Origin: Candidatus Babeliales bacterium
GTDB lineage: Bacteria; Babelota; Babeliae; Babelales; JANWKD01
Direction: 5' to 3'
Length of the DNA: 64,000 nucleotides
Assembly (NCBI GenBank): GCA_963762115.1
Contig: CAVXJH010000006.1
Coordinates: 384,001-448,000 of the forward strand
A model generated the notes under the pieces. That model was not told the DNA's origin and made no database searches. It saw only the letters and a list, made by a program, of their open reading frames with translations. The translations under genes and the position numbers were made by a program. Below, in pieces: positions 5,777 to 57,953 of the stretch. The first letter of the stretch is position 1, and every line of letters starts with the position of its first letter.

Positions 5777-6718
5777 ATGAATTGTATGCATTTTATTTTG
5801 TTATTTTTTGCTTTCATGCAGATGGTTAGCGTGCATGCTATGGAAGTTGCATCATTAGAAACTCGTAAGTTGCTTATGCAAGAACCTGACATTGCAAAAG
5901 CAGCTAGCATTTTTGGCGATGTGGGAATTATTGCTGCTCAAGATTTTTTGATTCATGATACAAAATTTAAAGAAAGAAAAGATGAAGGATTAACGTTGTT
6001 GGGGCAACTTTTTGATGTTGCGAGTAATTATGATGTTCTTGTTGATATGACAAATTGTGTTATGACGGAACATGTCAATTATTTACCTTATATTTATGGT
6101 GATAAGACATATGATGAATTTGAAGGTGATATTAAAAATAATTACAACAAGCTTTTTAAATTTGCAAAGCAAAAAAAACATGATGATGTTAAAGCGCAAG
6201 CACTTTTTGCTGATGCTCTTTATACTATGGAAAATACAAGGGTTATGAGAGAAGGTATAAAGAGAGTATTATTAGAAACAAGGGTAGTTGAAATATTAAG
6301 AGGCTATCAAAACAAAATTAATGAATGTGTATGGCGTGCTACTCAAAAAACAAATCTTGAAGCGGTAGAAATACTATCGCAAGAATATAAACGTTGTATA
6401 AAAAATTGTCATTTTGAAGATGCAAAAATAGATGCTCAAAAAAACTATATTAAAATGTGTTATGACTTTTCTTATTGTGCTTGGTTGCAAAATTCTCATG
6501 ATATAGCATTGAAATATGGCAAAGAAGCTTCAGATAAAGCATTGGAATGGGGTCAAAATGAGCCCATTTCGCAAAAAATATTGATTAATTGGCACAGTAC
6601 CCTTTCTGGTAAAAAGCATAAAGAATTTTCAGCAAGACCAGCAAAAACATCCTTCAGGAAAAGAAAACTTCCACGGCCAAAGCCATTTGAAAAAAAACAA
6701 AAGATGTTTACTGAATAA
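5777..6718 (+). CDS. Secreted orphan protein (VHA-ME motif), helical, basic C-terminus
   Basis: GAGGAG RBS before ATG 5777; signal peptide MNCMHFILLFFAFMQMVSVHA-ME. Confidence 0.7.
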   Translation: MNCMHFILLFFAFMQMVSVHAMEVASLETRKLLMQEPDIAKAASIFGDVGIIAAQDFLIHDTKFKERKDEGLTLLGQLFDVASNYDVLVDMTNCVMTEHVNYLPYIYGDKTYDEFEGDIKNNYNKLFKFAKQKKHDDVKAQALFADALYTMENTRVMREGIKRVLLETRVVEILRGYQNKINECVWRATQKTNLEAVEILSQEYKRCIKNCHFEDAKIDAQKNYIKMCYDFSYCAWLQNSHDIALKYGKEASDKALEWGQNEPISQKILINWHSTLSGKKHKEFSARPAKTSFRKRKLPRPKPFEKKQKMFTE

Positions 6719-6727
6719 TGTTATCTA

Positions 6728-7930
6728 TTATTCATGTTTTTCAACTTCTTTTTGTTGGCGCATAAACGTTGGCACATCAAGATCATTTAAATCAATGACC
6801 TCATAATTTTTTTCAACATGTTTTTCTTGCGCGGTTTCTACAACCTGTTCAAGGTGTTCAGCAACAGGAATTTTTATCAATTGAACTTCAGGTTGTGGTG
6901 ATTGCTTAACTATTTGTTCAATAGCAGGTTTAAATTTTTGTGACTCTTGAACTATGTTCATTTCATGATTAAAACCAGTTGCAATCACGGTGATAATAAT
7001 GTCATCAGCAAGAGCTTCATCAATGACCGATCCAACAATAATGCTCGCGTTTTCATCTGCTTGTTCAGCAATAACGGAAGCGGCAACGCCGATTTCATGC
7101 AGGCTTAGATTAAGGCCGCCAGAAATATTAATTAATATACCGCGAGCGCCTTTGATGTTCATATTTTCAAGTAATGGGGAAGATATTGCTTGATAAGCTG
7201 CATCTAAAGCACGATCTTTGCCTGTAGCTTTTCCGGTTCCCATAATTGCCAAGCCCATATCTTTCATGATTGTTCTTACATCAGCAAAATCAACGTTGAT
7301 GTGACCTGGCTTGGTGATAATATCAGCAATACCTTTTACTGATTGATGTAAAATCGTATTAATCATGCCAAATGCATCGATCATTGATACATTTTGATCG
7401 ACCGTTTCAAGTAATTTTTGATTGGGGATAATGAGTAGGGTATCAACTTCTTTTTTTAATGCTTCAATTGATTCTTGTGCAATTGCTGCTCTTTTTTTTC
7501 CTTCAAAAGTAAATGGTTTGGTGACAATTGCAATCGAAAGAATATTTTTTTCTTTAAGTGCGCGAGCAATAACAGGAATTGCGCCTGAACCAGTTCCTCC
7601 ACCCATGCCGGCGGTTAAAAAAACGATATCAGCATCTTCAAGAAGATCCATGATTTTACTCAAATCTTCTTCAGCTGCTCTTTTTCCTAATTCAGGATTT
7701 GCTCCAGCACCGAGTCCCTTTGTTGATTTGAGACCAAGTTGAATTTTGTGAGATGCCTTTGAAAGATTCAGTGCTTGTGCATCGGTATTTGCTACAATAA
7801 ATTCAATGCCGTGATATTGTTGTGCGTCAATCATGCTATTAACCGTGTTTCCGCCAGCACCACCAACTCCTAAAACTTTAATGCGTGCAGAAGGAATCTC
7901 ATCATGATGAGTAACTTCAAATTCAAACAT
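6728..7930 (-). CDS. ftsZ: Cell division GTPase FtsZ
   Basis: GVGGAGGN, GGGTGSG tubulin motif, INVDFADV, C-terminal LDVPTFMR. Confidence 0.98.
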   Translation of the reverse strand: MFEFEVTHHDEIPSARIKVLGVGGAGGNTVNSMIDAQQYHGIEFIVANTDAQALNLSKASHKIQLGLKSTKGLGAGANPELGKRAAEEDLSKIMDLLEDADIVFLTAGMGGGTGSGAIPVIARALKEKNILSIAIVTKPFTFEGKKRAAIAQESIEALKKEVDTLLIIPNQKLLETVDQNVSMIDAFGMINTILHQSVKGIADIITKPGHINVDFADVRTIMKDMGLAIMGTGKATGKDRALDAAYQAISSPLLENMNIKGARGILINISGGLNLSLHEIGVAASVIAEQADENASIIVGSVIDEALADDIIITVIATGFNHEMNIVQESQKFKPAIEQIVKQSPQPEVQLIKIPVAEHLEQVVETAQEKHVEKNYEVIDLNDLDVPTFMRQQKEVEKHE

Positions 7931-7945
7931 GTCCTCTCCTCTTTT

Positions 7946-11995: not shown

Positions 11996-11997
11996 AT

Positions 11998-12792
11998 TTA
12001 AATCTTCGAATCAGTTTCTTTAAAGTTCTGATTATTAGTAATCGAGTTGCAAATTGTTGTACTATTTCTTTCATCTTGATAAATAGTATCTAATTTCTTT
12101 TGTGCCAAAAGATAATTTTTTGCAGCCGCAAGTGAATAATAATGTTTTGCTTTTTCTATATCGCCTATATTTTGATAATACTCCCAAAGAGCAAATAAAG
12201 CTGAAGTTTCACCTTGATTAGCAGCAAGTGAATAATTACGTATTGCTTCTTCTATATTTCCCTCTTTGAAATTAAGCACCCCTAAATTATATTGTCCAAT
12301 AGGATAACCTTGATTAGCAGCAAGGGAATAATAATGCTTCGCTTTTTCTGTATCCCCTTTTTGAGAATACAGTATTCCTTGGTTAACTTGACACCATGGA
12401 TCATTTGGGTCGAGTGTAAAATAATCAGCATCATCATTGTCAAAAAGAGGTTCTACTGATCTCCAAATTAGCCATGCAGTAAGTGCAGTAAATACCACCC
12501 CAAAATTACGCTTATTAATTAAATTAACTTGATTTGATGCCGTAGTTACGATAGTTGAAGTAATCGGATTTTGGCTCAATGATTTATTTCTTTGATTCGT
12601 CGCAAAAATTTCTTTTTTTGTTAAGTACTCGTTTGAGTGTATTGAAGATAGTGGTAAAGTATGGCGAAGCAATGCTGGTCGAAAGTTGCTTTTAAGGGAG
12701 GATTTAGTGACATCTTTTGATTTATGCATAGCATCTAACTGCTCAGAAATCAAAAAAATTACAGTAAGTAAAAAAAACAACCTTCTTTTCAT
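11998..12792 (-). CDS. Secreted Sel1-repeat protein (LDA-MH motif) with an internal TM segment
   Basis: Three repeats such as EKAKHYYSLAANQG and GQYNLGVL; N-terminal signal peptide. Confidence 0.85.
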   Translation of the reverse strand: MKRRLFFLLTVIFLISEQLDAMHKSKDVTKSSLKSNFRPALLRHTLPLSSIHSNEYLTKKEIFATNQRNKSLSQNPITSTIVTTASNQVNLINKRNFGVVFTALTAWLIWRSVEPLFDNDDADYFTLDPNDPWCQVNQGILYSQKGDTEKAKHYYSLAANQGYPIGQYNLGVLNFKEGNIEEAIRNYSLAANQGETSALFALWEYYQNIGDIEKAKHYYSLAAAKNYLLAQKKLDTIYQDERNSTTICNSITNNQNFKETDSKI

Positions 12793-14710: not shown

Positions 14711-15376
14711 ATGTATATTCTTGAAGGCAATATTGGTGCAGGTAAATCAACCTTTTTAAAATTGCTTGCACAAAATATTTCAGCTATTTCCGTTGGATTT
14801 GAACCGTTGCATAATTGGCAAAGTAAGGTGCATGGGCAATCTTTATTGAGCAATTTCTATGAAAAGCCACAGCGATGGGCTTATAGCCTTGAGACCTTTG
14901 CTATGATTTGCCGTGTTTATGAACATCTCAAAGATCAAGAATATGAACATGATATTATTATTGAACGTTCAATTTATTCGGGCCATTATGTTTTTGCGGT
15001 TAATGGGTATGAACAAGGTTTTATGAGTGATATTGAATGGCATATGTATAATCAATGGTTTAATGCACTCGTCTCAACACATTGCAAAAAACCTCAAGGG
15101 TTCATCTATTTGCGCGTTGATCCTGCTATTGCCTATAAACGAATTAAGAAACGGAATCGTTTAGCGGAAAAAAAAATTACCTTGGCGTATCTTAAACAAA
15201 TTCATGCATGCCATGAAAAGTTTTTACGAGAAAAAGTTGGTATTTTGTCTGAACTTACTTCTGTCCCTGTTTTGATACTCGATTGTAACGAAGATTTTGA
15301 GAATGATGAACGTGTTTTACAATCACATCTTGATCTTGTCAAAGATTTTGTTATAAAAAGTAATCTTATAGTTTAG
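14711..15376 (+). CDS. Deoxynucleoside kinase (dAK/dGK family)
   Basis: EGNIGAGKST P-loop, ERSIYS, IYLRVDP...RIKKRNR lid. Confidence 0.92.
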   Translation: MYILEGNIGAGKSTFLKLLAQNISAISVGFEPLHNWQSKVHGQSLLSNFYEKPQRWAYSLETFAMICRVYEHLKDQEYEHDIIIERSIYSGHYVFAVNGYEQGFMSDIEWHMYNQWFNALVSTHCKKPQGFIYLRVDPAIAYKRIKKRNRLAEKKITLAYLKQIHACHEKFLREKVGILSELTSVPVLILDCNEDFENDERVLQSHLDLVKDFVIKSNLIV

Positions 15377-15869
15377 CATTCCCATTTATTTTAGCTTTTT
15401 TATTTCTTTTTTGGGCATTAATGGTGATGGCAATAGTTATTCCGTCAACAGGCATTTTTTTTGTATAGGCAAAAAGTGGCTTTTTTTGCATAAGTTCTGG
15501 GTATGTTTCGGTGAGAATGTTTTGTACTATTCTTTGTTTTTTTGGATTATTAACCAGTATTCGGCAACGGGTGATATCACCACAAGTCATGCCATTATTT
15601 TTGAGTTCTTGCAAAGCTGATTTTACCACTTCATGCGTTTGTGTTTCAGTGGTTTTATGTTTTTCTTCTACGACAAATACTGGTGTTTTAATAAATTCTA
15701 TCTTTTTACCGTATTCTGTTGTGGTTTCAGTCATAAGATTTGCAAATCTTTTCTCTAAGGAAATTAATATTTTTTCGGCCAAATCATATATAGGTCCTGA
15801 ATCCATCCCAAATAGTGCAGTAGGCATTATTGCGACTAAAAGAAAAAATGATAGGTGAAATTTATTCAT
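15366..15869 (-). CDS. Secreted orphan (LFG-MD motif) with a possible degenerate RidA/YjgF fold
   Basis: Signal peptide; QTHEVVKSALQELKNNGMTCGDITRCRILV resembles the RidA core pattern. Confidence 0.55.
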   Translation of the reverse strand: MNKFHLSFFLLVAIMPTALFGMDSGPIYDLAEKILISLEKRFANLMTETTTEYGKKIEFIKTPVFVVEEKHKTTETQTHEVVKSALQELKNNGMTCGDITRCRILVNNPKKQRIVQNILTETYPELMQKKPLFAYTKKMPVDGITIAITINAQKRNKKAKINGNAKL

Positions 15870-16051: not shown

Positions 16052-16564
16052 ATGTGGTTCATTCTTTTGTGTCTAGCGGGACTTTTTATGAATGCTCAGG
16101 CAATGGAAAATGAAGAAGGAAAAAAGTTTGGAAATGCTCCGGTTAAAACATATTTGCAAGAATGTGGTAAAAAAGATTTAAAAAAAGATGGGTTATGTCG
16201 TTATGTTTCAAGTAAGGGGGTCACCATTTCTGCACGGAAACAGGGGGCTACCATAAAATTGACAACTAAAATCCACAAGGCAACTGATACTGCAAGTGAA
16301 CCTGAATTTGGTAATGCTAAAGCCGATAATGATGCATTAGGTTATTCACTTGTTGGTTTACGGGCTTTAATGCATGCATATCGCAATAATGATAATCCTG
16401 ATAGAAAAACAGAGTGCACAACAAGGCATTCTTTGTATGTTGAAAAATATTCTGGGCGGACGCAAAGCTATTCTGATCGAGAATGTGTCACCTATATTTC
16501 TGCTAAAAAAGTATATAAGTTAAATGGTGTTAAAAAGAAAAAAGATTATGGAATTGGTGAGTAG
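16052..16564 (+). CDS. Secreted basic orphan protein (AQA-ME motif)
   Basis: AGGAG RBS; MWFILLCLAGLFMNAQA-ME. Confidence 0.7.
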   Translation: MWFILLCLAGLFMNAQAMENEEGKKFGNAPVKTYLQECGKKDLKKDGLCRYVSSKGVTISARKQGATIKLTTKIHKATDTASEPEFGNAKADNDALGYSLVGLRALMHAYRNNDNPDRKTECTTRHSLYVEKYSGRTQSYSDRECVTYISAKKVYKLNGVKKKKDYGIGE

Positions 16565-16667: not shown

Positions 16668-19361
16668 TTAACTGATTATACAGCGTTCTTTTTTTTCTAA
16701 TAAATCGAGTGCTTCTTTATTGTTATTTTCTAATAAATCAAGTGCTTTTTTATTCCCGGCCTTTATTGCCCATCCATGAATTTTATGTTTGCTTTCTTCA
16801 TCAAGATTTGGATGATGGGAGAGAATGCATTTGAGAATTTCAATACATTTAATATCTTCGGTTACCCATTGAAGTATTGTTATAGAGGTATTCGCTTTGT
16901 ATGGAACGTTTACATTGGCGCCAGCTTCAATCAATAATTGAGCAACTGGGAGTTTTTTTCTCCAATATATGGCGTGCATTAGAGGGCTTATTCCCCTATT
17001 ATCAGGTGTATTGATATCAGCGCCTTTGGCAATTAGCAATTGTGCAATTGTGTTTTTTTCTCTGTCTATAGCATATATTAAAGGTGTTATTCCGTGGTTA
17101 TCAGGCGTATGAATGTCAACGCCGTTTGTAATTAACAATTGAGCAATTGTAGTGTTTTCTCCCCAGTATAATATGGCGAACATTAAAGGAGTTATTCCGT
17201 TATTATCAGCCGTATGGATATCAGCGCCTTTAGTAATTAACAATTGAGCAATTGTATTTCTTTCTCTGTCTATAGCATACATTAGAGGAGCTCTTCCCTT
17301 GTTATCAGGCATACGGATATCTGCGCCTTTGGCAACTAGCAATTGAGTAATTGAAAGATCTCCTTGGTCGATGGCGTGTATTAGAGGAGTTCTTCCATTA
17401 TTATTAGCTTTATGAATATTAGCACCTTTGGCAATTAGCAATTGAGCAATTGAGAGATTTCCTTTGTTTATAGCGTATATTAGAGGAGTTCTTTCTTCGT
17501 TATCATGCATATGAATATCAGCGCCTTTGGCAATTAGCAATTGAGCAATTGAGAGATCTTTATTTGTAGAGGCACACATTAGAGGAGTTCTTCCTTCATT
17601 ATCATGCATATGAATATCAGCGCCTTTGGAGATTAGCAATTGAGCAATTATGGGATTTTCATCGTCTATGGCGTGTATTAGAGGAGTTCTGCCCTTGTTG
17701 TCAGGCATATGGATATCAGCACCTTTGGCGATTAACAATTGAGCAATTGAGAGATCTGTACTATTCATAGCGTACATTAGAGGAGTTCTTCCATTTTTAT
17801 CAGGGGTATGGATATTAGCGCCTTTGGCAATTAGCAATTGAATAATTGAAAGATCTCTTTTGCCTATGGCGTGTATTAAAGGTGTTCTTCCATTATTATC
17901 AGCTTTATGAATATCAGCGCCTTTGGCAATTAGCAATTGAATAATTGAGAGATTTCCTTGGTCTATGGCGTGTATTAAAGGTGTTCTTCCATTATTATCA
18001 GCTTTATGAATATCAGCGCCTTTGGCAATTAATAATTGTGGAATATGTGCAATATGCGAAAAGTGGCTAAGGTTGATTGTGGTTATCAATGGTGTATAGC
18101 TAAATAATTGATCGGTTTTATTAATATTAGCATAGCCTGTTTTCAATAACCATTGAACAATTTTAGGATTAATATTTAAAGTTCTGCAAGAGGTGTGTTG
18201 AGTAAATACCGTGTCAGTCAAAATAAGAATGCTTGTCTCATGATCATGAACTGCAAGATTAATATCAATCCCATGTAAAATTGCATCTTGGATTGTATCA
18301 AGATCATTACTTTCAAATGCTTTTATAAGTTTGCTTGAAAGATCAGAATTTTCGTCAAAGTAGTAGTTTGATGTTTCTTTGATAGTAATATTTTTATTTT
18401 GGGCTACAGATCTTAAAAACTTTACTATTGCTTGATTAATTTTATGAACTGGATTTAGAGGGCTAGTTTCTATTGATTCATCTTCAATAATTGCACCAAG
18501 ATTGACTAATTTTTTAATCAAATCAAAGTTATCTTTTTCGGCAGCATAAACCAAGGGAGTTTTCTTGTAGCGATCGCAAGCATTAATCAATGCCCCTTTG
18601 TTAATTAAATAATCAATTATTTCAAAACAATTAAAACTTATCGCATACATTAAGGGTGTTATTTGATCATTATTGCATGCATTTGGATTAGCGCCATAAG
18701 CAAGTAACAATTTAACAAGTTCAAAATTCTTAATTGCAATCGCATGCATTAACAATGTTAAACCATCTTTACAACGTATATCAATACCGGTAATAGTATT
18801 AGTTAATAAAAATTGAATAGCTTTTTCTAAGTCGATATTCTCTTTGCACAAAATATCATAGGCTGTTTTAAAATTTCTATCCCTTAATGCAATAACAATT
18901 TTTTTAAGACTAATATTGTTTTTATTTGATTGTTGATTCCCAGCAGGCGCAACAGATTGTCCTTCTGAAGTAAACTGTGTACCCTCTGCAAGAGCACCAT
19001 CAAACTCTTCATCTGAATATTCTAAATCAGGCATTTCTTCCTGAGTTAGTTCTCCTTGAATTTTTTCTTTACCATCTTTAATACCACTTCGAGCACCATT
19101 ATCTATCAAATAATTAACAATTTTGAAGTCGCCACTCTTTTGGCACATTTGAATTGCTTTCAAAAGAGCAGTTGACCAATCCAAGTCTTGCTCATTAATA
19201 TCGGCACCGGATTTAACAATCGCTTGAACAAGATCAAAATCATTCTGCCGAACAGCAGAAATTAATGGTGTTGTCTCACTATTATCAGCTTCCATGGCCA
19301 AAATGGGCGAAAGATTAGCGATAGTGAGAAAAATGGTTAAGAAAATAATATGTTTTTTCAT
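16668..19361 (-). CDS. Secreted ankyrin-repeat protein (ILA-ME motif) ending in CaaX (CIIS)
   Basis: MKKHIIFLTIFLTIANLSPILA-ME after AGGAG; many TPL..A..LL..GA repeats; terminal KKERCIIS*. Confidence 0.92.
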   Translation of the reverse strand: MKKHIIFLTIFLTIANLSPILAMEADNSETTPLISAVRQNDFDLVQAIVKSGADINEQDLDWSTALLKAIQMCQKSGDFKIVNYLIDNGARSGIKDGKEKIQGELTQEEMPDLEYSDEEFDGALAEGTQFTSEGQSVAPAGNQQSNKNNISLKKIVIALRDRNFKTAYDILCKENIDLEKAIQFLLTNTITGIDIRCKDGLTLLMHAIAIKNFELVKLLLAYGANPNACNNDQITPLMYAISFNCFEIIDYLINKGALINACDRYKKTPLVYAAEKDNFDLIKKLVNLGAIIEDESIETSPLNPVHKINQAIVKFLRSVAQNKNITIKETSNYYFDENSDLSSKLIKAFESNDLDTIQDAILHGIDINLAVHDHETSILILTDTVFTQHTSCRTLNINPKIVQWLLKTGYANINKTDQLFSYTPLITTINLSHFSHIAHIPQLLIAKGADIHKADNNGRTPLIHAIDQGNLSIIQLLIAKGADIHKADNNGRTPLIHAIGKRDLSIIQLLIAKGANIHTPDKNGRTPLMYAMNSTDLSIAQLLIAKGADIHMPDNKGRTPLIHAIDDENPIIAQLLISKGADIHMHDNEGRTPLMCASTNKDLSIAQLLIAKGADIHMHDNEERTPLIYAINKGNLSIAQLLIAKGANIHKANNNGRTPLIHAIDQGDLSITQLLVAKGADIRMPDNKGRAPLMYAIDRERNTIAQLLITKGADIHTADNNGITPLMFAILYWGENTTIAQLLITNGVDIHTPDNHGITPLIYAIDREKNTIAQLLIAKGADINTPDNRGISPLMHAIYWRKKLPVAQLLIEAGANVNVPYKANTSITILQWVTEDIKCIEILKCILSHHPNLDEESKHKIHGWAIKAGNKKALDLLENNNKEALDLLEKKERCIIS
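16905..18045 (-). repeat. Tandem ~99-bp ankyrin-coding repeats (11-12 units)
   Basis: Recurring GCGCCTTTGGCAATTAGCAATTGAGCAATT at ~99-bp period; the first two units are nearly identical at DNA level. Confidence 0.9.
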
Positions 19362-20143
19362 GGGGGGTTCTCCTTGTTTTTGAACCTGAAAAATAGTAAA
19401 AATATCAATTTTAATATAATTAAATGATAGCATATATATAAAAAATAGCAAGTAGTTAATTTCCTAATTGAAAATAAATCAAGTTGAGTTTTGTGATAAT
19501 AATTTAGAAAGGTTATTTTCCTATGTTTTTTTGAGAAAAAAATCTTAAGGTTAATAACAAGGAAGCAAATGAAGGTAAAAAATTCAATTAGTTAAAAATA
19601 TATAATATTTCATTATGCATATTGATTATATTTTTATATATTTTATACTTATTATTGTCTGATATTGTTAGTTTTTCAGTGTAAGAAGGAAATGCTCGTG
19701 AAAAAATCTATTTTATATGCCTTAATTTTTGGTTTTTGTGTTGGAAATGTGCTCAATGTTTGTGCAATGGAAGAAAAATCAACGGAGACTCTCAATCAAA
19801 AAGAAGCTCCTGAAATAACTGTTGAGGTTGGTTTGGAAAGCCTTGACAGTAAATGGTTTTTTGAAAATCAAAAAAATAAGGATTTTGGTGCTGCGCGAGG
19901 TTCTGTTAGAGCTTTAAATGCTATAAAAAAATATGACAATAACGCGAAATCTGAATATGAGCTTTATCCAAATTCTATTCCAAAGTACAGAGCGCTTAGG
20001 GGAAAATTATGCAGAAAACAAAAAGTATTTGATGCATTTTTTAACATACAAGTTCGAGATGTTCCAGAAGAAAAAAAAGTGATTGCAGCTGGTAGTGCTA
20101 AAATAAAAGAGCGTAGAATAGAATGGGATGCAACTGAATTTAT

Positions 20144-20711
20144 TTCGTATGACAGAAAACCCCAGGGTTTTAAACCTGGGGATGAATGTCATCAAATGCG
20201 CGAGCGAAGCAAAAATGTAAATTTTTGCGAAGTGAGGTTAGTTTTGTCATACTAATTGACATGACAAAGAAATATTGGCACGGAGCGCATACAACTCATA
20301 GGCATATGTATCATATAGTTTGGTTACCTAAATATAGAAAAAAAGTATTAGAAGGCAAAGTTAAGAGCAGGTTAGAAGAACTTTTGCGAGAATGTGCGGA
20401 AATTAATGCATGGGAAATTCAAGAACTAAATATTCAGATAGACCATGTGCATCTTGTAATACAATTACCACCAAGTGTGAGTGTGAGCAAGGCCGTTCAA
20501 TTACTCAAGGGAATTTCAAGTAAAATGCTCAGAGCTGAATTACCTGAAATAAAGAAATTTTTGTGGGGTAACGATTTTTGGGCAGATGGATATTTCTCTG
20601 AAACATTTGGACAATGTTCAGAAGAGACAATTCTCAATTATGTTAGAAATCAATAAAAAGCTTTCATCTCGTGCTTCTAAATCCACGGCTTTTAAGCCGT
20701 GTGTTGTTTAA
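20144..20711 (+). mobile_element. IS200/IS605-family element, tnpA only, 568 bp
   Basis: Left hairpin CCCCAGG...CCTGGGG preceded by AAAA; right hairpin CACGGC...GCCGTG preceded by AAAT; inferred target TTAT and right end TTAA; no TSD. Confidence 0.85.
20261..20656 (+). CDS. tnpA: Y1 HUH transposase TnpA
   Basis: YHIVWLPKYRKKVL, DHVHL (HUH), FWADGYF, ILNYVRNQ (catalytic Tyr). Confidence 0.95.
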   Translation: MTKKYWHGAHTTHRHMYHIVWLPKYRKKVLEGKVKSRLEELLRECAEINAWEIQELNIQIDHVHLVIQLPPSVSVSKAVQLLKGISSKMLRAELPEIKKFLWGNDFWADGYFSETFGQCSEETILNYVRNQ

Positions 20712-46580: not shown

Positions 46581-46928
46581 ATGAAATTAATAAAATTTTC
46601 TCTTATGCTTAGTATAAGCTTACTACCTTTATGTATGAAGGGAATGGATGAAAAAAAGTTAATAAAAAGTAATGGACCTGAGAATGCAAAAGCTGGCGTA
46701 TACGCCGTATTAGCACATTTTGATGATTTTAATCGGTATGAAGCTAATGGAAAATATAGTAATCAAGTTAAAGAGTATGCAAGGAAACTTAATAGTGCTC
46801 CTTCGGGATTTGATTATCAAGAATTTGAAACTATCATTCGAAACAAATGGTTTGATTGTGTAGCTGAGATATATGAGGCAAGTACTGATAACGTAAAAAA
46901 TGTAATATATTTAAATGATAAAAAATAG
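46581..46928 (+). CDS. Small secreted orphan (MKG-MD motif)
   Basis: MKLIKFSLMLSISLLPLCMKG-MD. Confidence 0.6.
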   Translation: MKLIKFSLMLSISLLPLCMKGMDEKKLIKSNGPENAKAGVYAVLAHFDDFNRYEANGKYSNQVKEYARKLNSAPSGFDYQEFETIIRNKWFDCVAEIYEASTDNVKNVIYLNDKK

Positions 46929-48659: not shown

Positions 48660-49757
48660 TTACAACCAATAGAGTTTCTTTATGGTATAAGGAACCTGAG
48701 CATTTTTATTCCGTTCAATAATTGCAAAAACTTTTTGTGTTATATTTCCTACAATACCATAGGACAGTATACCAAATGTTTTTGCTTCAAAGTTTTGTGC
48801 TAACAAACTAGTAAAATCAGTAGGCACGGCTTTTAATTCTTTTCCATAGAGTTTTTGTAATACTTTTTCCCATGTTATTTTTATATCTCCTTCGATAGAT
48901 TTCATTCCCTTCAGGAGTTGTTCAATTTCTTTTTCTCGTGCTGGCACATCACCTGTTTCAGCGCGCTTTAATCCAACTATGGCGCAAATTGAATCCGAAA
49001 GCAACCAAGGATTTAATGTTTTGGTACCTGACCATAGCGTAAGTATATCCATTAAGTACACGGGCCTTTGCTCCTTTTTTGTGCCTTTTAGTGCAGGCGG
49101 CTCGTAAAATAGTGCTTCTTTAAATGCCTCGCGAAATTCTTTTATTGAAAGAAGTTCGGTGACATCATTCAACTTATACTGCCTCTGTTTTAAAAACTTT
49201 TCAAATAGTTCGAATAAGTCTTTGCCCCCTGCAGTTTTTTTCATGCTATTAAAGAGCGCTTTAAATATCTTTTTTCCATCAAGTGATGTTGCACCTTCGC
49301 CAATAAATTTTTTTTTGCCGAAGTCATACCATTGATTAATATCTATTTTACCATCTTCGCAAGTAATGCAAAGCCTGATCTCACCATCTAATCCATCAAT
49401 TTCTTCTTTGAGAGTGAATGATTGCCATCTATTGAGTGCCGGCATACTCTTTTTCAAGAGTTCTATGTTTGGATCTTTTTTTTCTTCGGCATCTTTTTGC
49501 TGAGCGGTCTGTGTTTTTTCGTTTGATTTTTTTTCTTCGGGTTTTGGTATGGTGAGCATACTTATTGCTAATTCAATACCGCCCTTTGCTAATGTTTTGG
49601 CTTTTTCGCGTTCAATCATGGTGCGATTAAAATAAAAATGTATTGTACTATTTTGAAAAAGTTGTGTAACGAGCATGACGATCATGCTTAAGATCATAAG
49701 GGTAAGGACGAGAATAAAGCCTGATTGCTGATGTGCAGAATGAGGAGATTTATTCAT
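48660..49757 (-). CDS. gspK: Type II secretion minor pseudopilin GspK
   Basis: SG-FILVLTL leader, ITCEDGKIDIN, TELLSIK; operon position. Confidence 0.8.
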   Translation of the reverse strand: MNKSPHSAHQQSGFILVLTLMILSMIVMLVTQLFQNSTIHFYFNRTMIEREKAKTLAKGGIELAISMLTIPKPEEKKSNEKTQTAQQKDAEEKKDPNIELLKKSMPALNRWQSFTLKEEIDGLDGEIRLCITCEDGKIDINQWYDFGKKKFIGEGATSLDGKKIFKALFNSMKKTAGGKDLFELFEKFLKQRQYKLNDVTELLSIKEFREAFKEALFYEPPALKGTKKEQRPVYLMDILTLWSGTKTLNPWLLSDSICAIVGLKRAETGDVPAREKEIEQLLKGMKSIEGDIKITWEKVLQKLYGKELKAVPTDFTSLLAQNFEAKTFGILSYGIVGNITQKVFAIIERNKNAQVPYTIKKLYWL

Positions 49758-49773
49758 GAACGATCCTTACTGT

Positions 49774-50694
49774 TTATGGTTTTGGGGGTGTGTTAGGTAT
49801 TTTACCAGTTTGATTTAAATTTTTTTGCGGTTTTTCTTTATCAGATTTTTTTTCTTGTTGCGATGTATCATTAAAAGAGGCAATTGCATAGTTTAATATA
49901 AATTTTTGCGATTGACGATGATGAAGATCCCATAGTTCAAGAATGATGTTTATACATTGTGGAATTTTAGGGATCGTTTCTTTTTCTTTGGCGGGTAGAT
50001 TTTCTTTTCCCCATTCTTTAACCATTTTAAACGTGATTGGTTGTTGTTCTGGTTTTGCGTCTTGAGGATTAGATTCTTTTGTTTCTTTTTTCCCCTCTGG
50101 TTTTGAAGGCTCAGGATAGCGGTATTCTACTTGAAGAGATTTAATATTTTGAGTAAGTTCATAAGCGCGAATTCCTTGTTTCCCTTTAATTTCAAAGTCT
50201 TTTAAATCAAGATTGGTTGCTTCTTGACGAGTAAGGGCAAAAGATGTTTTATCTTCGTTGGGCACCAGTTTATAGACAACGCGTACCATGCGAGAAGTGG
50301 GACCTTCTTTGTGATACATTTGCAAAGGATTATTAGTTATGAATGAGAGAAGTTGTAATGAGGTATCTTTGTTGGAGCTAATAAAAATATCTTTAATTTC
50401 TTTTTGTGGAGATTCTTTTTCTTGTTCAGGTGCCTTTGCCGGTTGTTTTGCGTTTGGTGCTGCTGCAATGGTTGTTGTAGTGGTGCTTGAAAGTTGCAAG
50501 GGAACAAAAATGCCAGAAAAATCATTTTCAAGTTGATGTGCTACAAGAGCAATATGCACATCAATATTGATAATATCATCACTCGCTTTAATCACTTTCC
50601 CGGTAACATAAAAACTGGAATAAAGAGCAAGTAAGATAATGCTTGAAATTAACAAACCAATAATAAGTTCAATAAGGGTAAACCCAGACCTCAT
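49774..50694 (-). CDS. gspJ: Type II secretion minor pseudopilin GspJ
   Basis: MRSG-FTLIEL prepilin motif; operon position. Confidence 0.8.
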   Translation of the reverse strand: MRSGFTLIELIIGLLISSIILLALYSSFYVTGKVIKASDDIINIDVHIALVAHQLENDFSGIFVPLQLSSTTTTTIAAAPNAKQPAKAPEQEKESPQKEIKDIFISSNKDTSLQLLSFITNNPLQMYHKEGPTSRMVRVVYKLVPNEDKTSFALTRQEATNLDLKDFEIKGKQGIRAYELTQNIKSLQVEYRYPEPSKPEGKKETKESNPQDAKPEQQPITFKMVKEWGKENLPAKEKETIPKIPQCINIILELWDLHHRQSQKFILNYAIASFNDTSQQEKKSDKEKPQKNLNQTGKIPNTPPKP

Positions 50695-51119
50695 GCTTTT
50701 TCTTTCTCTTTTGTTGGCTGTTGATATAAAAAAGTGATGAGCGTTTCTTTATTTTCTCGTAGTACGCCTGACCATGTTGCCTCAGCTTTTTCAATGATGA
50801 TATCAGCAAATGGTGCAAGAGCAGAATTTTGAGGAACTTTTTGTGTTGAATAACGCAGGGTTGTTTCAATAATTTCAGAAACTTTTTTTTCTTCTTGTGC
50901 ATAACCTTTATTTTGTGCTCGTGCATAGGCAGCATCAAATAAAACATTTTTCAAGAGCAAAACAGCCCTTAAGCGTTCAGAATATTTCACAATGCTGGTG
51001 AAGCTGCTATTTTGTAATCCTAAGGCAGCAGTTAGCATGATGCCGAGCATTAAGACAGCAAGCACTATTTCGATGAAGGTGAATCCATCACCATTGTTAT
51101 GGTTTTTGAAATGTATCAT
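50691..51119 (-). CDS. gspI: Type II secretion minor pseudopilin GspI
   Basis: DG-FTFIEIVL prepilin motif; operon position. Confidence 0.75.
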   Translation of the reverse strand: MIHFKNHNNGDGFTFIEIVLAVLMLGIMLTAALGLQNSSFTSIVKYSERLRAVLLLKNVLFDAAYARAQNKGYAQEEKKVSEIIETTLRYSTQKVPQNSALAPFADIIIEKAEATWSGVLRENKETLITFLYQQPTKEKEKA

Positions 51120-51639
51120 ATACTTTGAACTGTACAATAAAAGGATTGAGCACTAAACCTAAAGGAACTTCTTTTTGTTCGCCAACGTCAACAACATTGA
51201 TAATAACATCCTGTCCTAATCCTTCTGGCGTTACAAAAATCCAAATTTTATCGATTTTTTTACTTTCTTTTAAACCTTCAATAATAAATTCTCGTATTTC
51301 AAGATTTTTATCCCATGTGTAGGTTGTTTTTCGGTAGGCACCACTTACATTTTGGAAGGTAGTTTTTCCTTTTTCATCTTGTTTTGTTTCAACTTCAATC
51401 TTAATCGTTCTTGTATCAAAATCAAACAAAACGCGATGCAATTGATTGGTGCTGAGTGCATGTTCCCAGGTGATTGCCATGAGCGCGTTTAATTCGGTTA
51501 CAAACTGTTTTCGTTTGTAACCAGGAGCTTGTTGCAAAAGATTCGGAACAACAATGGTTGCCATCACGCCAATAATCATGATGACAACCAATATTTCTAT
51601 AAGCGAAAAACCAACTAGTTTTTTAGACTTCCCAAACAC
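51097..51639 (-). CDS. gspH: Type II secretion minor pseudopilin GspH
   Basis: VG-FSLIEILVV prepilin motif; VTPEG. Confidence 0.78.
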   Translation of the reverse strand: MFGKSKKLVGFSLIEILVVIMIIGVMATIVVPNLLQQAPGYKRKQFVTELNALMAITWEHALSTNQLHRVLFDFDTRTIKIEVETKQDEKGKTTFQNVSGAYRKTTYTWDKNLEIREFIIEGLKESKKIDKIWIFVTPEGLGQDVIINVVDVGEQKEVPLGLVLNPFIVQFKVYDTFQKP

Positions 51640-52060
51640 TTATGTGTTCCTCTTCAGGGCTTTCTTCACCATTTGGACCATAAGAAAATAGATCATAAGG
51701 ATGTTTGCCGCCCGGTGTTATTTTATAGTAGAAATCATGGCTCCAACCATCTTGCGGTGTTTTTGTCTTTGATAAATAAGGCCCTTGCCATTTTTTGGCT
51801 ACCGCTTTTGGTGCTTCGATTAAATCTTCAAGTTGTTTTGGATAGGCGCCAACGTCGGCCTTATATAAATCAAGTGATTGACTAAGAGCATTCATGCTTG
51901 AAATTGTACTGGTTCTGCTTGCACGTTTTAAATAATTAAGGGCGCCGGTGCCAACAACAGCAGCTAAAATGCCCATAATGAGTACAGCAACAAGAATTTC
52001 AATAAGACTGAATCCATCTTGGGCATGTGATCTGTGTGAATGAGAGTCTTGATATGTCAT
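51623..52060 (-). CDS. gspG: Type II secretion major pseudopilin GspG
   Basis: DG-FSLIEIL, LDLYKADVGAYP, WQGPYL, DGWSHDFYY, LFSYGPNG. Confidence 0.93.
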   Translation of the reverse strand: MTYQDSHSHRSHAQDGFSLIEILVAVLIMGILAAVVGTGALNYLKRASRTSTISSMNALSQSLDLYKADVGAYPKQLEDLIEAPKAVAKKWQGPYLSKTKTPQDGWSHDFYYKITPGGKHPYDLFSYGPNGEESPEEEHISVWEV

Positions 52061-52080
52061 AAATAAAAATCCTTTCATGA

Positions 52081-53307
52081 TTATTGTTTTATTATTTCCT
52101 CTGTACCTACCATATTTGTCATAGGCATTACAATTGATAAAACTATAAAACCGACAACAACGGCCATGATGATTAACATAACCGGTTCTAAAGCAGCTGA
52201 CAAATTATCAGAAAAATCGGCTAAATCATCTTCATAGTTTTTTGCAACAGTGAGTAACATAAAATCGAGTTGTCCACTTTCCTCACCCGTTTTAAGCAAA
52301 TAAATTGCAATGGGGGGAAAGATATTTGTTTGTTTCAAGTACTCAGTTATTTTACCTTGTTTGATAATTTTGTCTCGTGCTTCATTGAGCGCGTCTTTGA
52401 GAATGCGATTATCAATAATTTTTACGACAATATCGAGTGATTCAGAAAGATTAACGCCACTTTCAATAAGCAAGCCTAAGGTGCGACTAAATTGAACCAC
52501 GGCGCCCATACGCGTGAAAAATCGTATGACGGGAATTTTTAATTTTATTTTATCAATGGTGCGCGCACCACTTGGTGTTTTGCTCCAAAAGCGATAGGAA
52601 AACACAATGCAAATAATGGTGCCAATAATCAAGAGATAATATGAGCGGAAAATATCTGATAGCCCCATGAGCATTCGGGTTGGTAGGGGTAATGCGTTAC
52701 CTTGTGAGGTGAATGTTTCTGCTAATTTTGGAATAACAAACGTAACCAACGCAACCACCACAAGAACAATAACGCCAAGTTGCATAAGAGGATATGAAAG
52801 TGCTGCTTTGACTTTTTTCACGAGCGCAGCACGCTTTTCCATATAGTCAACTAAGCGCAGTAAAATTGTTTCTAATTTACCACTTGCTTCACCAGCACGC
52901 ACTAGTTGAATATAAATAGTATCAAATACTTTTGGGTATCGACTCAAGCCATCAGCAAATGATTTACCTTCTTTAATACCATCTTTAATGCTAATTAATA
53001 TTGAGCGGAGTGTTCCCTCAAATTGTTCAACCAATAATTCAATAGCTTGTAATAAAGGAACGCCAGATTTTAAGAGCACTGCAAGTTGTTTGGTAAATAA
53101 GATTTTATCTTTGAGGGAAATTGATGGTGTAAAGATGCTTTTATACCAAGGAAGTGTTTCGCTTTGGCTTTTTGCAAGCTCAATTTTACTGGGGTACATT
53201 CCCGTTCTTACCAGCTGTTGTCGCACAGCTTCTTGTGAGGGTGCATCAAGGATTCCGGTCGTCCTTTTACCATCTTTTGTGTAAGCTTGGTAACTATATA
53301 ACGCCAT
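52081..53307 (-). CDS. gspF: Type II secretion platform protein GspF (PilC family)
   Basis: FTKQLAVLLKSGVPL, AGEASGKL, ALSYP, TGEESGQL, LEPV. Confidence 0.93.
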   Translation of the reverse strand: MALYSYQAYTKDGKRTTGILDAPSQEAVRQQLVRTGMYPSKIELAKSQSETLPWYKSIFTPSISLKDKILFTKQLAVLLKSGVPLLQAIELLVEQFEGTLRSILISIKDGIKEGKSFADGLSRYPKVFDTIYIQLVRAGEASGKLETILLRLVDYMEKRAALVKKVKAALSYPLMQLGVIVLVVVALVTFVIPKLAETFTSQGNALPLPTRMLMGLSDIFRSYYLLIIGTIICIVFSYRFWSKTPSGARTIDKIKLKIPVIRFFTRMGAVVQFSRTLGLLIESGVNLSESLDIVVKIIDNRILKDALNEARDKIIKQGKITEYLKQTNIFPPIAIYLLKTGEESGQLDFMLLTVAKNYEDDLADFSDNLSAALEPVMLIIMAVVVGFIVLSIVMPMTNMVGTEEIIKQ

Positions 53308-54426: not shown

Positions 54427-54544
54427 TAAAAAATTCTTGTTTTTGTTAAGGCTATTTTAAATTACATTGCATGATTGTAGTGCCGTATATTTGATCTTTA
54501 TCTTCTTTGGATAATCCTCATCTATGCATTCAGAAAAAGAGGAA

Positions 54545-56023
54545 TTATTGCAAGCCGCATGATGGGTAATATGAATATGTATCTTGTTCAGTTGGGGCGA
54601 TATGATCATTATTTTCATTGATTTCTTTAGTTTCAGTTTTAGCGGGCAATGATAATGTTGCATCTATTTTTTTTAATAGTTGATTTTTATAATCTTCAGG
54701 TAAATCGTTTATTAGTGTTGATTGCTTAAGCGCTGATAACAATGTTTTATCATGAGAAGAATTTGAAAATGCAATGAATGCAAAGATTTCTTTAAGTGAG
54801 GGTATATTGAATTTTTTTATACCGTCAAAATGGCCATTCCATGGTTGTTCAAAAAAATTGATTACTTTTCCTGTTTCAATGTCACACGAAAGAAATTTAA
54901 AAACTTTATGAACATAAGCTTCTGCGCCAAATTGTAAACAATACGTTAAAATACCATTATCAAAGTCTGCAATGCGTTTGGTAGCATATCCCCCGAATAT
55001 TGATTTTGTATTATTTTCTGTATTTTGAGGTTGTGGAGAAAATTTTTTAAGAAAAGTTAATGTGTTATCAATATTTTCAATAAAATAAAAATCACTATTT
55101 GCGTCATTTGTTGTTAAAATAATATTTTTTTTGTTATTGATTAAAGTTGCACATATATTTTGGGGAAATTCAAGTGAAGATATTTTTTGTAAAAATGTTC
55201 CATCATTATTTTTACGTACTGCCCATAGAAAGTTTTTTGTATCAAGTAAGAGCAATAAACTATTATGATCGGTATCTTGTACATGAATGACTTTTGTTAG
55301 AGAGGGTTTTTCTTCTTGAATTTTTATAACGTGTTCATCTTGCATATTCCAAATAGTGACTTTATGTAGATTTGAAGGATAGCTAGGCAATCGGCAAGTG
55401 GCAAAAGTTTTATTGTCTAGAAAAGAAACAAATGATGGATATTTAAAAGGGCATGGTGTATCTAATTGTTCATCGATAGATGCTTTGTTTTTCCATATTC
55501 CATTATCATTTGTCGCAACGGTAATATGTTCCTGGTCATCAGTTGCTTGAAAAGTAAACGTTAAATATTTTTTATTAGGTGAAAGTTCAGACTTAACCAG
55601 TTGACCTTGATAATTAGAATCACTCAACAACATTCTATGAGTAATATTATATGCCATATTATTACGGCTTGCATAACAATTTATGCTAAAATCAAAGGTA
55701 TATCCATGAGTTGTAGCTTCAATTAATGTTTGTTGTTCAACAAGTGGTTGCAATTCAATAGGTAACCTTGCAAGTGTGTTATTTGTTTTTGTGAAAAATG
55801 TATCAACGGTACTTCCAGTTATTTTATGAAAGTGAGATACGATATTTTTTCCAACTTGTTTACTTGCACAGTGAATGAGAGAAAGCGGTTGATTTGTAAA
55901 ACAATCTCGAGCGCGATCATATTTTGGTGTATTTGGTCTTTCTACTGTTTCTGTTATTTCCATTGCATTAAGCGGGAAGTATACAACAGCAAAGAGCAAA
56001 AGAGTTCGAAGTGTCTGTTTCAT
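54545..56023 (-). CDS. Secreted beta-propeller-like orphan (LNA-ME motif) ending in CaaX (CGLQ); paralog of 56715-57953
   Basis: MKQTLRTLLLFAVVYFPLNA-ME; LARLPIEL; WD-like LSPNKKYL and VTIWNM; terminal YPSCGLQ*. Confidence 0.75.
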   Translation of the reverse strand: MKQTLRTLLLFAVVYFPLNAMEITETVERPNTPKYDRARDCFTNQPLSLIHCASKQVGKNIVSHFHKITGSTVDTFFTKTNNTLARLPIELQPLVEQQTLIEATTHGYTFDFSINCYASRNNMAYNITHRMLLSDSNYQGQLVKSELSPNKKYLTFTFQATDDQEHITVATNDNGIWKNKASIDEQLDTPCPFKYPSFVSFLDNKTFATCRLPSYPSNLHKVTIWNMQDEHVIKIQEEKPSLTKVIHVQDTDHNSLLLLLDTKNFLWAVRKNNDGTFLQKISSLEFPQNICATLINNKKNIILTTNDANSDFYFIENIDNTLTFLKKFSPQPQNTENNTKSIFGGYATKRIADFDNGILTYCLQFGAEAYVHKVFKFLSCDIETGKVINFFEQPWNGHFDGIKKFNIPSLKEIFAFIAFSNSSHDKTLLSALKQSTLINDLPEDYKNQLLKKIDATLSLPAKTETKEINENNDHIAPTEQDTYSYYPSCGLQ

Positions 56024-56216
56024 CGAATGTCCTACCATATAAAATTTATTAAAAATATACATAGAATATTAAGTTTTTTTGATGAATTGTCAAATTGAAT
56101 AGATGTTATGAGATTTTTTAAAACATTTTTTTTGATTGAAGTATTGACATGATAAAAGGCAAAAGAAGTAATCTTGATTTTGTAATCGTTATGTTAATTT
56201 TAATAAAAGGAATTAT

Positions 56217-56612
56217 ATGAATGGACAATCAGCTTCAAAGCTTACGCATGGTACTTGGTTAATGCTTAAGGTCACCTATGGTTTAGTTGGCATAGCAGCA
56301 GGTGCTGACAAATTTTTTAATATTATTACTAACTGGGAACAATATTTGAGCCCTAAGATTAGTGCACTTATCCCTCTTATTCCTACTCATTTTATGTATA
56401 TTGTTGGTATTGTTGAAATTGCAGTAGGAATTTTAATTCTTACCAAATTCACGCGTCTTGGTGCGTATCTTATTGCTGCATGGCTTGTCATAATTGTAGC
56501 AAATTTACTTTCAATGGGCATGTATTATGATATTGCTGTTCGCGATGTTGTCATGGCTGTTGGCGCGTTAGCTCTTGCGCAACTTACCCTTATACAAGAA
56601 AAAAATATATAA
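56217..56612 (+). CDS. DoxX-family membrane protein
   Basis: AGADKFFN..W..YL, VGIVEIAVG, YYDIAVRD. Confidence 0.8.
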   Translation: MNGQSASKLTHGTWLMLKVTYGLVGIAAGADKFFNIITNWEQYLSPKISALIPLIPTHFMYIVGIVEIAVGILILTKFTRLGAYLIAAWLVIIVANLLSMGMYYDIAVRDVVMAVGALALAQLTLIQEKNI

Positions 56613-56714
56613 TAATTTTAAAGATTTAAGTGTAAAAATATCTTATTTGAATCTAACTGTAAAATTTGGGCGGCAAGCTCTAGCTGCTCATGGGGCTGTT
56701 TGCCCCTGAATTGC

Positions 56715-57953
56715 TCAGTGTAATTTTTGATCTATGTGTGAATTTGCACCTGCAATTGATGCAAAAATTGCATTTAAGGGCGGATTAAGCATTGGTTCAA
56801 AACCGTATTCTAGTTCTATATTATTAACAATTTTTTCTGTATCGATATCGATTGAGGTGTGCTCGTAAATAGGCGATTTATCTGCATGTTCAAAAGTTAA
56901 AATGCCATTTTCAAAGCTTCTTATATAATATCTTGGGAATTTAGTTGGTGCTGATTTTAGCGAAATTTTTTTGATTAATGTTAATGAACCATCGATATTG
57001 GCAATAACCCGAATAGTAAGGCTATTAGGATTTGATAAAGCAATAAGTTGCTTGTTTTTTGCTTCAAAAACATCATGCAAATCATGCAGTGATTCAAGAG
57101 AGGTAATTTTTTGTAAATATTTTCCGTTATTGTTTTTATGACATCCCCATAAGGTTTTCTTTGTATCTAGAAAAAGTAAAAATTCTTTACAAGATGACTC
57201 TATATCTCCAACAGTAAATTCTAGTGGTTCCTCTGTTCGAGTTAAATTGCCATTATCTGCAATATGCCAAATATCAATTTTTTCAGGGGAATTATTTATC
57301 CAAGAAAGACAAGTCTGATGATCTACAAAGCGAGCAACATGGTTTTCACAATTGTCTGCTTTTTGTTGAGTTGCTGAAAGGCTATTGAATATGTTGTTAT
57401 CATTTTTAAAAAATTGAATATTTCCATTATGAAGTGCAATTGCTAATAATTGTTCATTTGATGAAAGGTGACAATCAAATACCACTGAATCAAAATCTAA
57501 GTGCTGAAGGGCCACTGCTTGATTTCCATTTTCATTAAATATTTTTTTTCTTATTGTTACGCGGAAGCCATAACTGCGCACTCCATACATAAATTTCCAG
57601 TCGGGATCTTGGAGCTTATTCTTACTATAATCACCTATATAACCTCTCTTTGCTGCTTCAATTAATGTTTGCTGTTCAACAAGAGGCCGCAATTCAATTG
57701 GCAACGTTGTAAATTCTGCGTTAAATTCTGATGCGAATGCATCGACTGTTTCACCATTTATTTGACCAAAATATTCTGATATATTTTGTGCAACTTGTTT
57801 GCTTGATTGATGTATGAGAGAAAGTGGCTGCGTGGTAAAGCAATCTCGTGCGCGATCATATTTTGGCGTGTTAGGTTTTTCTGTTATTTCCATCGCATTA
57901 AGTGGAAAGTATATAACAAAAAAGAGAAAAAAAATGCGAAGAGATTGTTTCAT
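56715..57953 (-). CDS. Secreted beta-propeller-like orphan (LNA-ME motif); paralog of 54545-56023
   Basis: Shares PNTPKYDRARDCFT.QPLSLIH and LPIEL.PLVEQQTLIEA; WD-like LSSNEQLLAIALHNGNIQFF. Confidence 0.75.
   Translation of the reverse strand: MKQSLRIFFLFFVIYFPLNAMEITEKPNTPKYDRARDCFTTQPLSLIHQSSKQVAQNISEYFGQINGETVDAFASEFNAEFTTLPIELRPLVEQQTLIEAAKRGYIGDYSKNKLQDPDWKFMYGVRSYGFRVTIRKKIFNENGNQAVALQHLDFDSVVFDCHLSSNEQLLAIALHNGNIQFFKNDNNIFNSLSATQQKADNCENHVARFVDHQTCLSWINNSPEKIDIWHIADNGNLTRTEEPLEFTVGDIESSCKEFLLFLDTKKTLWGCHKNNNGKYLQKITSLESLHDLHDVFEAKNKQLIALSNPNSLTIRVIANIDGSLTLIKKISLKSAPTKFPRYYIRSFENGILTFEHADKSPIYEHTSIDIDTEKIVNNIELEYGFEPMLNPPLNAIFASIAGANSHIDQKLH

Follow-up and report, generated by a model that had tools for sequence, protein, structure and literature searches.

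In the Bacteroidetes, the Q-rule describes a lineage-wide preference for Gln directly after the signal peptidase I (SPase I) site, which is tied to the stability of exported proteins (PMC5837995). In Plasmodium, cleavage at the Plasmodium export element, or host-targeting motif (PEXEL/HT), makes a new N-terminus on host-bound proteins, and the first two residues of that N-terminus matter (PMC3567231). The N-degron pathway of the eukaryotic cytosol reads the residue left by signal peptidase on certain Sec-secreted bacterial proteins (PMC2518864, where listeriolysin O is also cited), and the phytoplasma effectors SAP54/phyllogen, which are secreted by Sec and act in the host cytosol, have Gly/Ala-Met-Asn/Asp behind a sequence-variable mosaic (SVM) leader. 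For Babela massiliensis and Chromulinavorax destructans, which encode ankyrin and orphan proteins with signal peptides, a route by Sec plus the type II secretion system (T2SS) was proposed (PMC4378268; PMC6561590); the portions of these papers available to us mention signal peptides and give no residue rule behind them. Here we deal with a 64-kb stretch of DNA (the window, G000:C6:384001-448000) and its 1.53-Mb source genome G000 (34% GC, 95% complete), in which exported proteins share a mark, Met directly behind the predicted signal peptide (position +1), usually followed by Glu. The Babeliales (Babelota/TM6, Dependentiae) are intracellular parasites of protists, and G000 was taken as a Babeliales genome with a protist host. 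By FtsZ its relatives make up a phylum with one order, in which identities to G000 run from 50 to 73%; the Dependentiae locus L118, at 64%, lies within that range.

By analogy, the mark appears to combine traits of the Q-rule and of PEXEL while being a member of neither. The Q-rule concerns Gln and extends to the majority of SPase I substrates; the residue here is Met, a preference at +2 accompanies it, and only eukaryote-like and orphan proteins carry it. No bacterial modifying enzyme was found, one of three exported GNAT acetyltransferases having been searched, and the reader would be the host. In contrast to PEXEL, processing would be by Sec and SPase I with neither an RxL motif nor a dedicated protease, the +1 residue is fixed as Met, no translocon is known, and comparative evidence suggests that the mark is neither necessary nor sufficient. 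The known N-degron cases are single proteins, whereas this is a proteome-scale bias and a two-residue code across 137 unrelated families, and the SVM leaders form one homologous family, whereas those of the Babeliales share no sequence relationship. A Met+1 rule was not found described in literature whose scope ended short of subscription journals and Babelota paper supplements (e.g., the table of signal peptides in PMC4378268), and the word "methionine" occurs 0 times in the available text of PMC4378268, PMC8026896 and PMC5837995. We regard this strong N-terminal code on a likely class of Babeliales effectors as real and apparently undescribed, with hints of convergence elsewhere.

An in-house gene caller yielded 1,413 genes in G000, and a signal-peptide filter retained 510 soluble candidates, which are the denominator of the genome-wide counts. 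Cleavage sites were placed by a fixed (-3,-1) rule blind to the +1 residue; an unsupervised expectation-maximisation model had collapsed onto the hydrophobic (h-) region and was dropped in its favour. The blind rule put Met at +1 in 162/510 proteins, and in 56 of the 124 with high-confidence sites, against a Met background of 1.6-1.8%. A residue of the set [AGSC] followed by Met at most 11 residues past the h-region was found in 202/510. Shifted windows gave 20/510, 19/510 and 20/506, and 500 within-window shuffles gave a mean of 75 (maximum 95). A strict rule cut this loose set to 195/510, eliminating Skp and a few other false positives, and the runner-up at +1 was Leu with 56. A directed, not blind, search of alternative start codons gave 66 extra candidates, six of them among the 17 window genes discussed below, so that some 200-260 exported proteins of G000 are predicted to carry Met directly behind the signal peptide, usually with Glu next. 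When 71 loci of other bacteria were passed through the same pipeline, the bait gene of each being excluded, Met+1 was seen in 1/133 proteins, and on this Bacteroidota-rich control set the same predictor returned Gln as the top +1 residue, which matches the expectation from the Q-rule.

The marked proteins have the features of Sec/SPase I substrates, namely a basic n-region, a hydrophobic h-region and small residues at -3/-1. Position -1 is A/G/S/C, -3 is mostly L/I/A/S/V and Met mostly lies at residue 18-27; no conserved Arg or other motif was found at positions -8 to -2 of the Met+1 proteins in G000. The 195 proteins fall into 137 families, 116 of them singletons. Met+1 genes showed no clustering near the gsp genes of G000, and since the window barely exceeds the genome mean in marked proteins (11 vs 8.2 per 64 kb), proximity to gsp carries no weight. 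The Met+1 pattern was thus confirmed as real, stronger than chance and much wider than the window.

At +2, the 195 proteins have Glu in 109, Gln in 25, Asp in 16, Asn in 11, His in 9, Lys in 7 and Ser in 6, plus ten others. Glu, Gln, Asp or Asn make up 161/195 at this position, compared with 83/195 at +3, 57/156 where a confident site lacks Met and 61/282 at the starts of cytoplasmic genes; with one protein per family (n=137) the figures are of the same order of magnitude (Glu 68, Asp 15, Gln 13, Asn 10). The three residues of the PEXEL P2' consensus, Glu/Gln/Asp, account for 150/195. Small residues at +2 are fewer at Met sites than at non-Met sites (15/195 vs 46/156), as are hydrophobic ones (6/195 vs 39/156). 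In eukaryotes, a small residue after Met triggers methionine removal and Met-hydrophobic is a degron, and Sec disfavours Lys/Arg early in the mature part. With all of these shunned, Glu, Gln, Asp, Asn and His are what is left over, and still Glu is twofold above the number expected from composition under such a passive filter (109 vs 56); the related genome G020 favours Asp (7/12). The 161 Met-[EDQN] termini, with 48/69 in relatives, are of the type acetylated by NatB, which also takes Met-Asn and Met-Gln. The substrates described for NatB have Met followed by Asp or Glu (PMC8874572).

Protein classes were assigned by us from a Pfam scan of all 510 candidates. Met+1 was found in 43/68 eukaryote-like proteins (ankyrin 24/38, WD40-like 11/12, other 8/18) and in 1/41 envelope plus beta-helix proteins (1/33 and 0/8; p=2e-11), a contrast that is overstated, with a fair figure nearer 1 in 20, because lipoproteins and signal anchors account for about half of the envelope set and only ~20/41 look by eye like cleavable SPase I substrates. 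The sole marked envelope protein of G000 is BamA. Enzymes were marked in 7/64 cases and cytoplasmic false positives in 0/11. With orphans at 144/326, the proteome-wide enrichment over conserved envelope proteins on which the initial annotation depended was borne out under our in-house rule. Its statement that most eukaryote-like modules belong to the marked class held genome-wide and for CaaX ends, and failed in two details of the window, where one of three ankyrins starts with Tyr and the F-box is a motif with no Pfam hit. CaaX-like ends, which are read only in the eukaryotic cytosol, occur on 12/195 Met+1 and 2/315 non-Met proteins (p=3e-4), so that 12/14 CaaX proteins are marked. Nuclear localisation signal-like, C-terminal KK and F-box patterns did not separate the Met and non-Met classes.

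Two side observations concern these classes. A tandem array of about 15 Met+1 paralogues (L062:238-13302) includes three with weak C2H2 zinc-finger matches, which are candidate nuclear effectors. Seven enzymes that are normally cytoplasmic or eukaryote-type have a signal peptide and no Met+1: glutamine synthetase (L053:9630), glucokinase (L055:8276), a MutS-like protein (L078:12958), a histone deacetylase (L035:6000), a DOT1-like methyltransferase (L015:16415), a deubiquitinase (L061:3732) and a MavL-like macrodomain protein (L036:13816).

In G001, of the same genus (400 kb), 44/132 proteins are marked. Reciprocal pairs between the two genomes were Met/Met in 13 cases, Met/non-Met in 4 and non-Met/Met in 2 (both signal anchors), and in 7 further pairs one partner fell outside the filter, mostly through mis-called starts. 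In 15 Met-anchored orthologue pairs with a median identity of 34%, +2 was identical in 11 and -1 in 10, compared with 0-6 at other positions. Across the phylum, 230 genomes were surveyed with the DNA pattern MKK...[small]ME. A tally of 208/230 genomes with a match was discarded as inflating the spread, because at least one chance match also arises in 184/301 alphaproteobacterial genomes, and counts of at least 8 were adopted instead; these were reached in 54/230 phylum genomes and 9/21 families, and in 0/301 alphaproteobacterial genomes (maximum 7). The strength of the mark in the phylum ranges from near 0 to 55% (G020, 12/22).

In the low-Met genomes, for which 71/140 listed proteins were scanned, similar proteins begin differently: four leucine-rich repeat (LRR) paralogues of G200 start Ala-Ala-Pro (L221:16019-19772, L224:18079-19179), a mitochondrial-carrier-family protein with a signal peptide in G087 starts Ala-Glu (L230:17182-18129), and ankyrins start Ser-Asp, Gln-Glu or Glu-His. 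Ala or Ser at +1 was possibly raised, at 14/25 and 9/18 vs 38/132 in controls, in small numbers; as a lead, Met may be replaced there by Ala/Ser, which forms the second main class of eukaryotic N-termini. Two loci labelled "uncultured Pseudomonadota" (L102, L174) were rejected as a second marked lineage and assigned to the Babeliales on the basis of FtsZ at 56% identity, no GcrA and, for L174, an order shared with G000.

What is established is the pattern in the sequences, its conservation, its confinement to orphan, CaaX and eukaryote-like proteins, and its independence from T2SS and LepB (SPase I) counts. To explain it, we consider it probable, if by no means certain, that host-side selection favours a stable, possibly NatB-acetylated Met-Glu N-terminus in the protist cytosol. 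The proteins would be exported by Sec, cut by SPase I before Met, and passed over the outer membrane in vesicles or by the T2SS, no other secretion system having been found in G000, a step for which Met would not be required. In the host cytosol, Met would be stabilising, and the large polar +2 residue would block methionine aminopeptidase and avoid the Met-hydrophobic degron; NatB, or a host reader like it, is the likely reason for the added preference for Glu, which one family replaces by Asp. There is precedent for an N-end rule of the host that responds to whatever residue a bacterial signal peptidase has exposed (PMC2518864). The proposal of the initial annotation that cleavage regenerates a host-like N-terminus gains support in this way, given a mark that sits on eukaryote-like and CaaX proteins, is near-absent from the envelope and is followed by a +2 residue that avoids small and hydrophobic side chains.

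If selection acts on the host side, unrelated intracellular bacteria with other exit routes should show the same excess. In G362 (Alphaproteobacteria), 10/17 matches were in-frame signal peptides with Met-Glu/Asp, compared with 0/17 for an Ile control; with the same pattern, other alphaproteobacteria gave Met vs Ile counts of 3 vs 2 (G529) and 0 vs 2 (G333), and G531 gave none. Over 24 fully listed genomes of the order of G362, probably a Holosporineae-type group, 30/106 Met matches were in-frame signal peptides by eye, compared with 4 (at most 11)/146 for Ile. Holosporales proper gave ~14 in-frame matches in 22 genomes, by eye and without an order-wide matched control (G333 Ile control, 2 vs 4). 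ATP/ADP translocases, a sign of host dependence, were present in all five alphaproteobacterial genomes checked, including G362, and TolC in 3/3. Phytoplasmas have no outer membrane. In their SAP54/phyllogen family (PF12113), G/A-M-N/D was present in 20/22 of the sequences examined from the PMC8026896 supplement, the cleavage site being our reading, and SAP11 has Ala/Ser at the position of the SAP54 Met. As an observation apart, one small exported family of Pelagibacteraceae keeps A-MEK after the signal peptide (L082, L086, L104, L110, L126, L149, L156, L173), showing that free-living bacteria, too, can fix Met+1 within one family.

A number of points weigh against host-side selection, the overstated envelope contrast among them. 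Cleavage sites were predicted with an in-house heuristic, neither SignalP nor proteomics. Among eukaryote-like proteins, 25/68 lack Met+1, two CaaX proteins belong to the non-Met set, and some unmarked eukaryote-like proteins have a predicted destabilising +1 residue (Arg in a deubiquitinase; Asn, Gln, Glu and Lys in ankyrins). Met+1 occurs in 5/30 BamA orthologues, of which four belong to families f1 and f11; this suggests a lineage-wide tilt of some kind, unrelated to the host. In eleven other Babeliales samples, five of which were picked for low counts, Met+1 was found in 13/190 proteins. Plain escape from N-degrons would be served equally by Ala, Ser, Gly or Val, which leaves the choice of Met unexplained. 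NatB is described as acting co-translationally (PMC8874572), and no paper was found in the literature on NatB acting on delivered bacterial proteins. Outside the phylum, the failure to find GspG in 5/5 high-count alphaproteobacterial genomes, a point in favour, is tempered by the secretins that G362 and G514 encode, the completeness of these two not being established; the SAP54 evidence comes from one family. Export signals were observed at the N-termini of three GNAT acetyltransferases (window 31629-32234 and 34356-34994; L046:9053-9634), and an exported GNAT as a bacterial NatB was rejected as not general, relatives of the protein at 31629, the only one of the three searched, being found in 3/5 high-Met genomes.

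The initial annotation had also suggested a sorting tag for a second export step through the gsp system. Exposed Met-Glu/Gln/Asp would then be read, as in PEXEL, by a periplasmic chaperone, one of the two GspD secretins or a translocon of the vacuole membrane, and the protein directed to the host cytosol. The sharp split between envelope and eukaryote-like proteins and the twofold excess of Glu over a passive filter fit this idea, as does the Plasmodium case, in which the N-terminus exposed by cleavage is both required and enough for export (PMC3567231). The T2SS is described as the only secretion system in Babela (PMC4378268), TolC had no match in G000 or G001, and one operon of G000 holds two secretins, two copies being already known for the phylum (PMC4776705). 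The two GspD of one operon could serve two substrate classes. However, a GspD secretin is present in 227/230 phylum genomes while the mark varies over its whole range, so that the T2SS does not track it, and the LRR, ankyrin and mitochondrial-carrier proteins of low-Met genomes start with Ala, Ser, Gln or Glu. On comparative evidence the mark would be neither necessary, given the unmarked eukaryote-like and CaaX proteins, nor sufficient, given BamA, and alphaproteobacteria that gave no GspG match show a similar excess. T2SS substrates are generally recognised as folded surfaces, and no candidate receptor was identified. The sorting tag is weakened by these findings and we consider it unlikely. 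A wider proposition, that a two-residue code (Met-Glu/Asp, or Ala/Ser) evolved repeatedly in intracellular bacteria and is in Babeliales actively read by host NatB or by a PEXEL-like step tied to the two-secretin T2SS, is tentative and in our judgement falls short of probable.

It is quite improbable that the mark is a matter of housekeeping. On that reading, either Met-Glu would be favoured at P1'/P2' by the signal peptidase or Sec of the Babeliales, or the mark would guard long-stored cargo of the periplasm against exported peptidases of the same cell, the part played by pyroglutamate in the Q-rule. G000 does have two tandem LepB genes (G000:C3:458081-459687; L296, L302), ~4 kb from the GspE/PilB-like ATPase, as well as several exported peptidases (M3, S9, S8, C11), high-Met families have BamA with Met+1, and early acidic residues are a general Sec preference, as the non-Met sites show. 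Yet the resident envelope proteins and enzymes, which would be most in need of such protection, are unmarked (1/41, 7/64), and a second signal peptidase was rejected as the cause, since the mark is independent of LepB copy number: G032, G061 and G223 have one LepB match each and 27-33 pattern matches. More improbable still, and largely refuted, is the suggestion that Met is a start codon, fossil or still in use, in genes to which a leader was added, the pattern spreading by duplication or leader shuffling with no selection on the N-terminus: in a few members, such as DnaJ and a methyltransferase, Met does lie, by eye, about where cytoplasmic relatives begin, and 4/18,128 unrelated pairs agree at 9-10 of 15 leader positions, but a Shine-Dalgarno score of at least 2.5 precedes 56% of leader starts and 0% of internal Mets, residue 2 of cytoplasmic proteins is Lys/Ser/Ile/Ala with Glu in only 11/282 (vs 109/195 after the exported Met), no matching excess of Val/Leu (GTG/TTG starts) is seen at +1, and Met-Glu is retained in orthologue pairs while the remaining leader diverges, so that a fossil start may account for the origin of some members and not for their upkeep. 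A portable leader cassette was likewise rejected, the leaders being unrelated across the 137 families and the best unrelated pair sharing 10/15 residues.

In the window itself (Table 1), all 17 open reading frames (ORFs) that had been reported to have a small residue followed by Met were recovered with the same positions and dipeptides, minus-strand genes being given by their low coordinate. The blind rule agreed on cleavage adjacent to Met in 15/17; the ORF at 43071 passed only a looser test, and that at 29472 is doubtful. None of the five proteins named as negatives (58095, 59381, 53437, 14072, 41069) has Met. The description of the 17 as mostly unrelated orphans was right as to the diversity of families, and in need of correction for 54545 and 56715, which are paralogues. 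The G001 orthologue of 43071 has NNA-ME and, in addition, a run of 11 residues whose last is another Met. Elsewhere in the window are an IS4/Tn5-type transposase (10410-11798, Pfam), an IS200-like ORF (20186-20656, by eye) and two adjoining large exported orphans with no Pfam hit (58095-62266), the first of which ends in Phe like an outer-membrane barrel.

Table 1. Marked proteins, a counter-example and secretion genes of the window, with related secretion genes elsewhere in G000 (aa, amino acids; SP, signal peptide; hyphen, predicted cut).
Feature	Junction	Position	Strand	Basis or remark
Orphan, 313 aa, SP	VHA-ME (Met22 at 5840)	5777..6718	+	No Pfam hit; G001 orthologue 25% identity, SP + ME
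Sel1/TPR protein, 264 aa	LDA-MH (Met22)	11998..12792	-	Pfam + blind rule
Orphan, 167 aa	LFG-MD (Met22)	15366..15869	-	Pfam scan + blind rule
Orphan, 170 aa	AQA-ME (Met18 at 16103)	16052..16564	+	G001 orthologue 36% identity retains AQA-ME
Ankyrin-repeat protein, 897 aa, CaaX-like end CIIS	ILA-ME (Met23)	16668..19361	-	Pfam + blind rule
Orphan, 185 aa	VCA-ME (Met at 19767)	19698..20255	+	Blind rule
Orphan, 368 aa, F-box-like motif by pattern only	LHA-ME (Met29 at 25424)	25340..26446	+	G001 orthologue 34% retains A-ME
Orphan, 121 aa, end CIFQ (CaaX-like by eye)	SYC-MH (Met26)	29029..29394	-	Blind rule
Doubtful member, short ORF; no proper n/h-region, SP or start	CDA-ME	29472..29699	-	
Ankyrin-repeat protein, 278 aa	SHA-ME (Met24 at 29931)	29862..30698	+	Pfam + blind rule
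Orphan, 181 aa	LFG-MD (Met19 at 33776)	33722..34267	+	Blind rule
Orphan, 238 aa	SQS-MH (Met20)	38544..39260	-	Blind rule
Orphan, 74 aa	SYC-MN (Met23 at 42387)	42321..42545	+	Blind rule
Orphan, 82 aa	NNA-MS (Met22 at 43134)	43071..43319	+	Looser test only
Counter-example: ankyrin with SP	Tyr at predicted +1	44177..45628	+	Pfam + blind rule
Orphan, 115 aa	MKG-MD (Met22 at 46644)	46581..46928	+	Blind rule
gsp cluster, T2SS inner-membrane + pseudopilins		48660..53307	-	Pfam T2SSF, T2SSG, N_methyl
gspK-like		48660-49757	-	Named from position only
Three prepilin-type genes		49774-51639	-	Pfam N_methyl
gspG		51623-52078	-	Pfam T2SSG
gspF		52081-53307	-	Pfam T2SSF
Orphan, 492 aa, paralogue of 56715	LNA-ME (Met21)	54545..56023	-	
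Weak beta-propeller match, 412 aa	LNA-ME (Met21)	56715..57953	-	G001 orthologue 28% retains A-ME
gspC, two gspD, PilM/GspL-like gene in one operon (L054, L055)		G000:C6:205033-213979		Pfam Secretin, T2SSC
GspE/PilB-like ATPase		C3:453701		Walker-A pattern match only

A large share of Babelota genes encode orphans with signal peptides, and no genetics is known for the phylum. The two-residue mark offers a sequence-only predictor of effectors for this almost uncultured group, one that splits candidates for the host cytosol from proteins of the envelope or vacuole. If the excess in alphaproteobacteria and phytoplasmas holds, the N-degron and acetylation rules of the host would be a general convergent force on Sec-exported effectors, which in the literature available so far has been seen only for single proteins. 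Were an actively read code to prove true, the effector class could take in as much as a fifth of the proteome, and bacteria would have their own parallel to the export code of malaria parasites.

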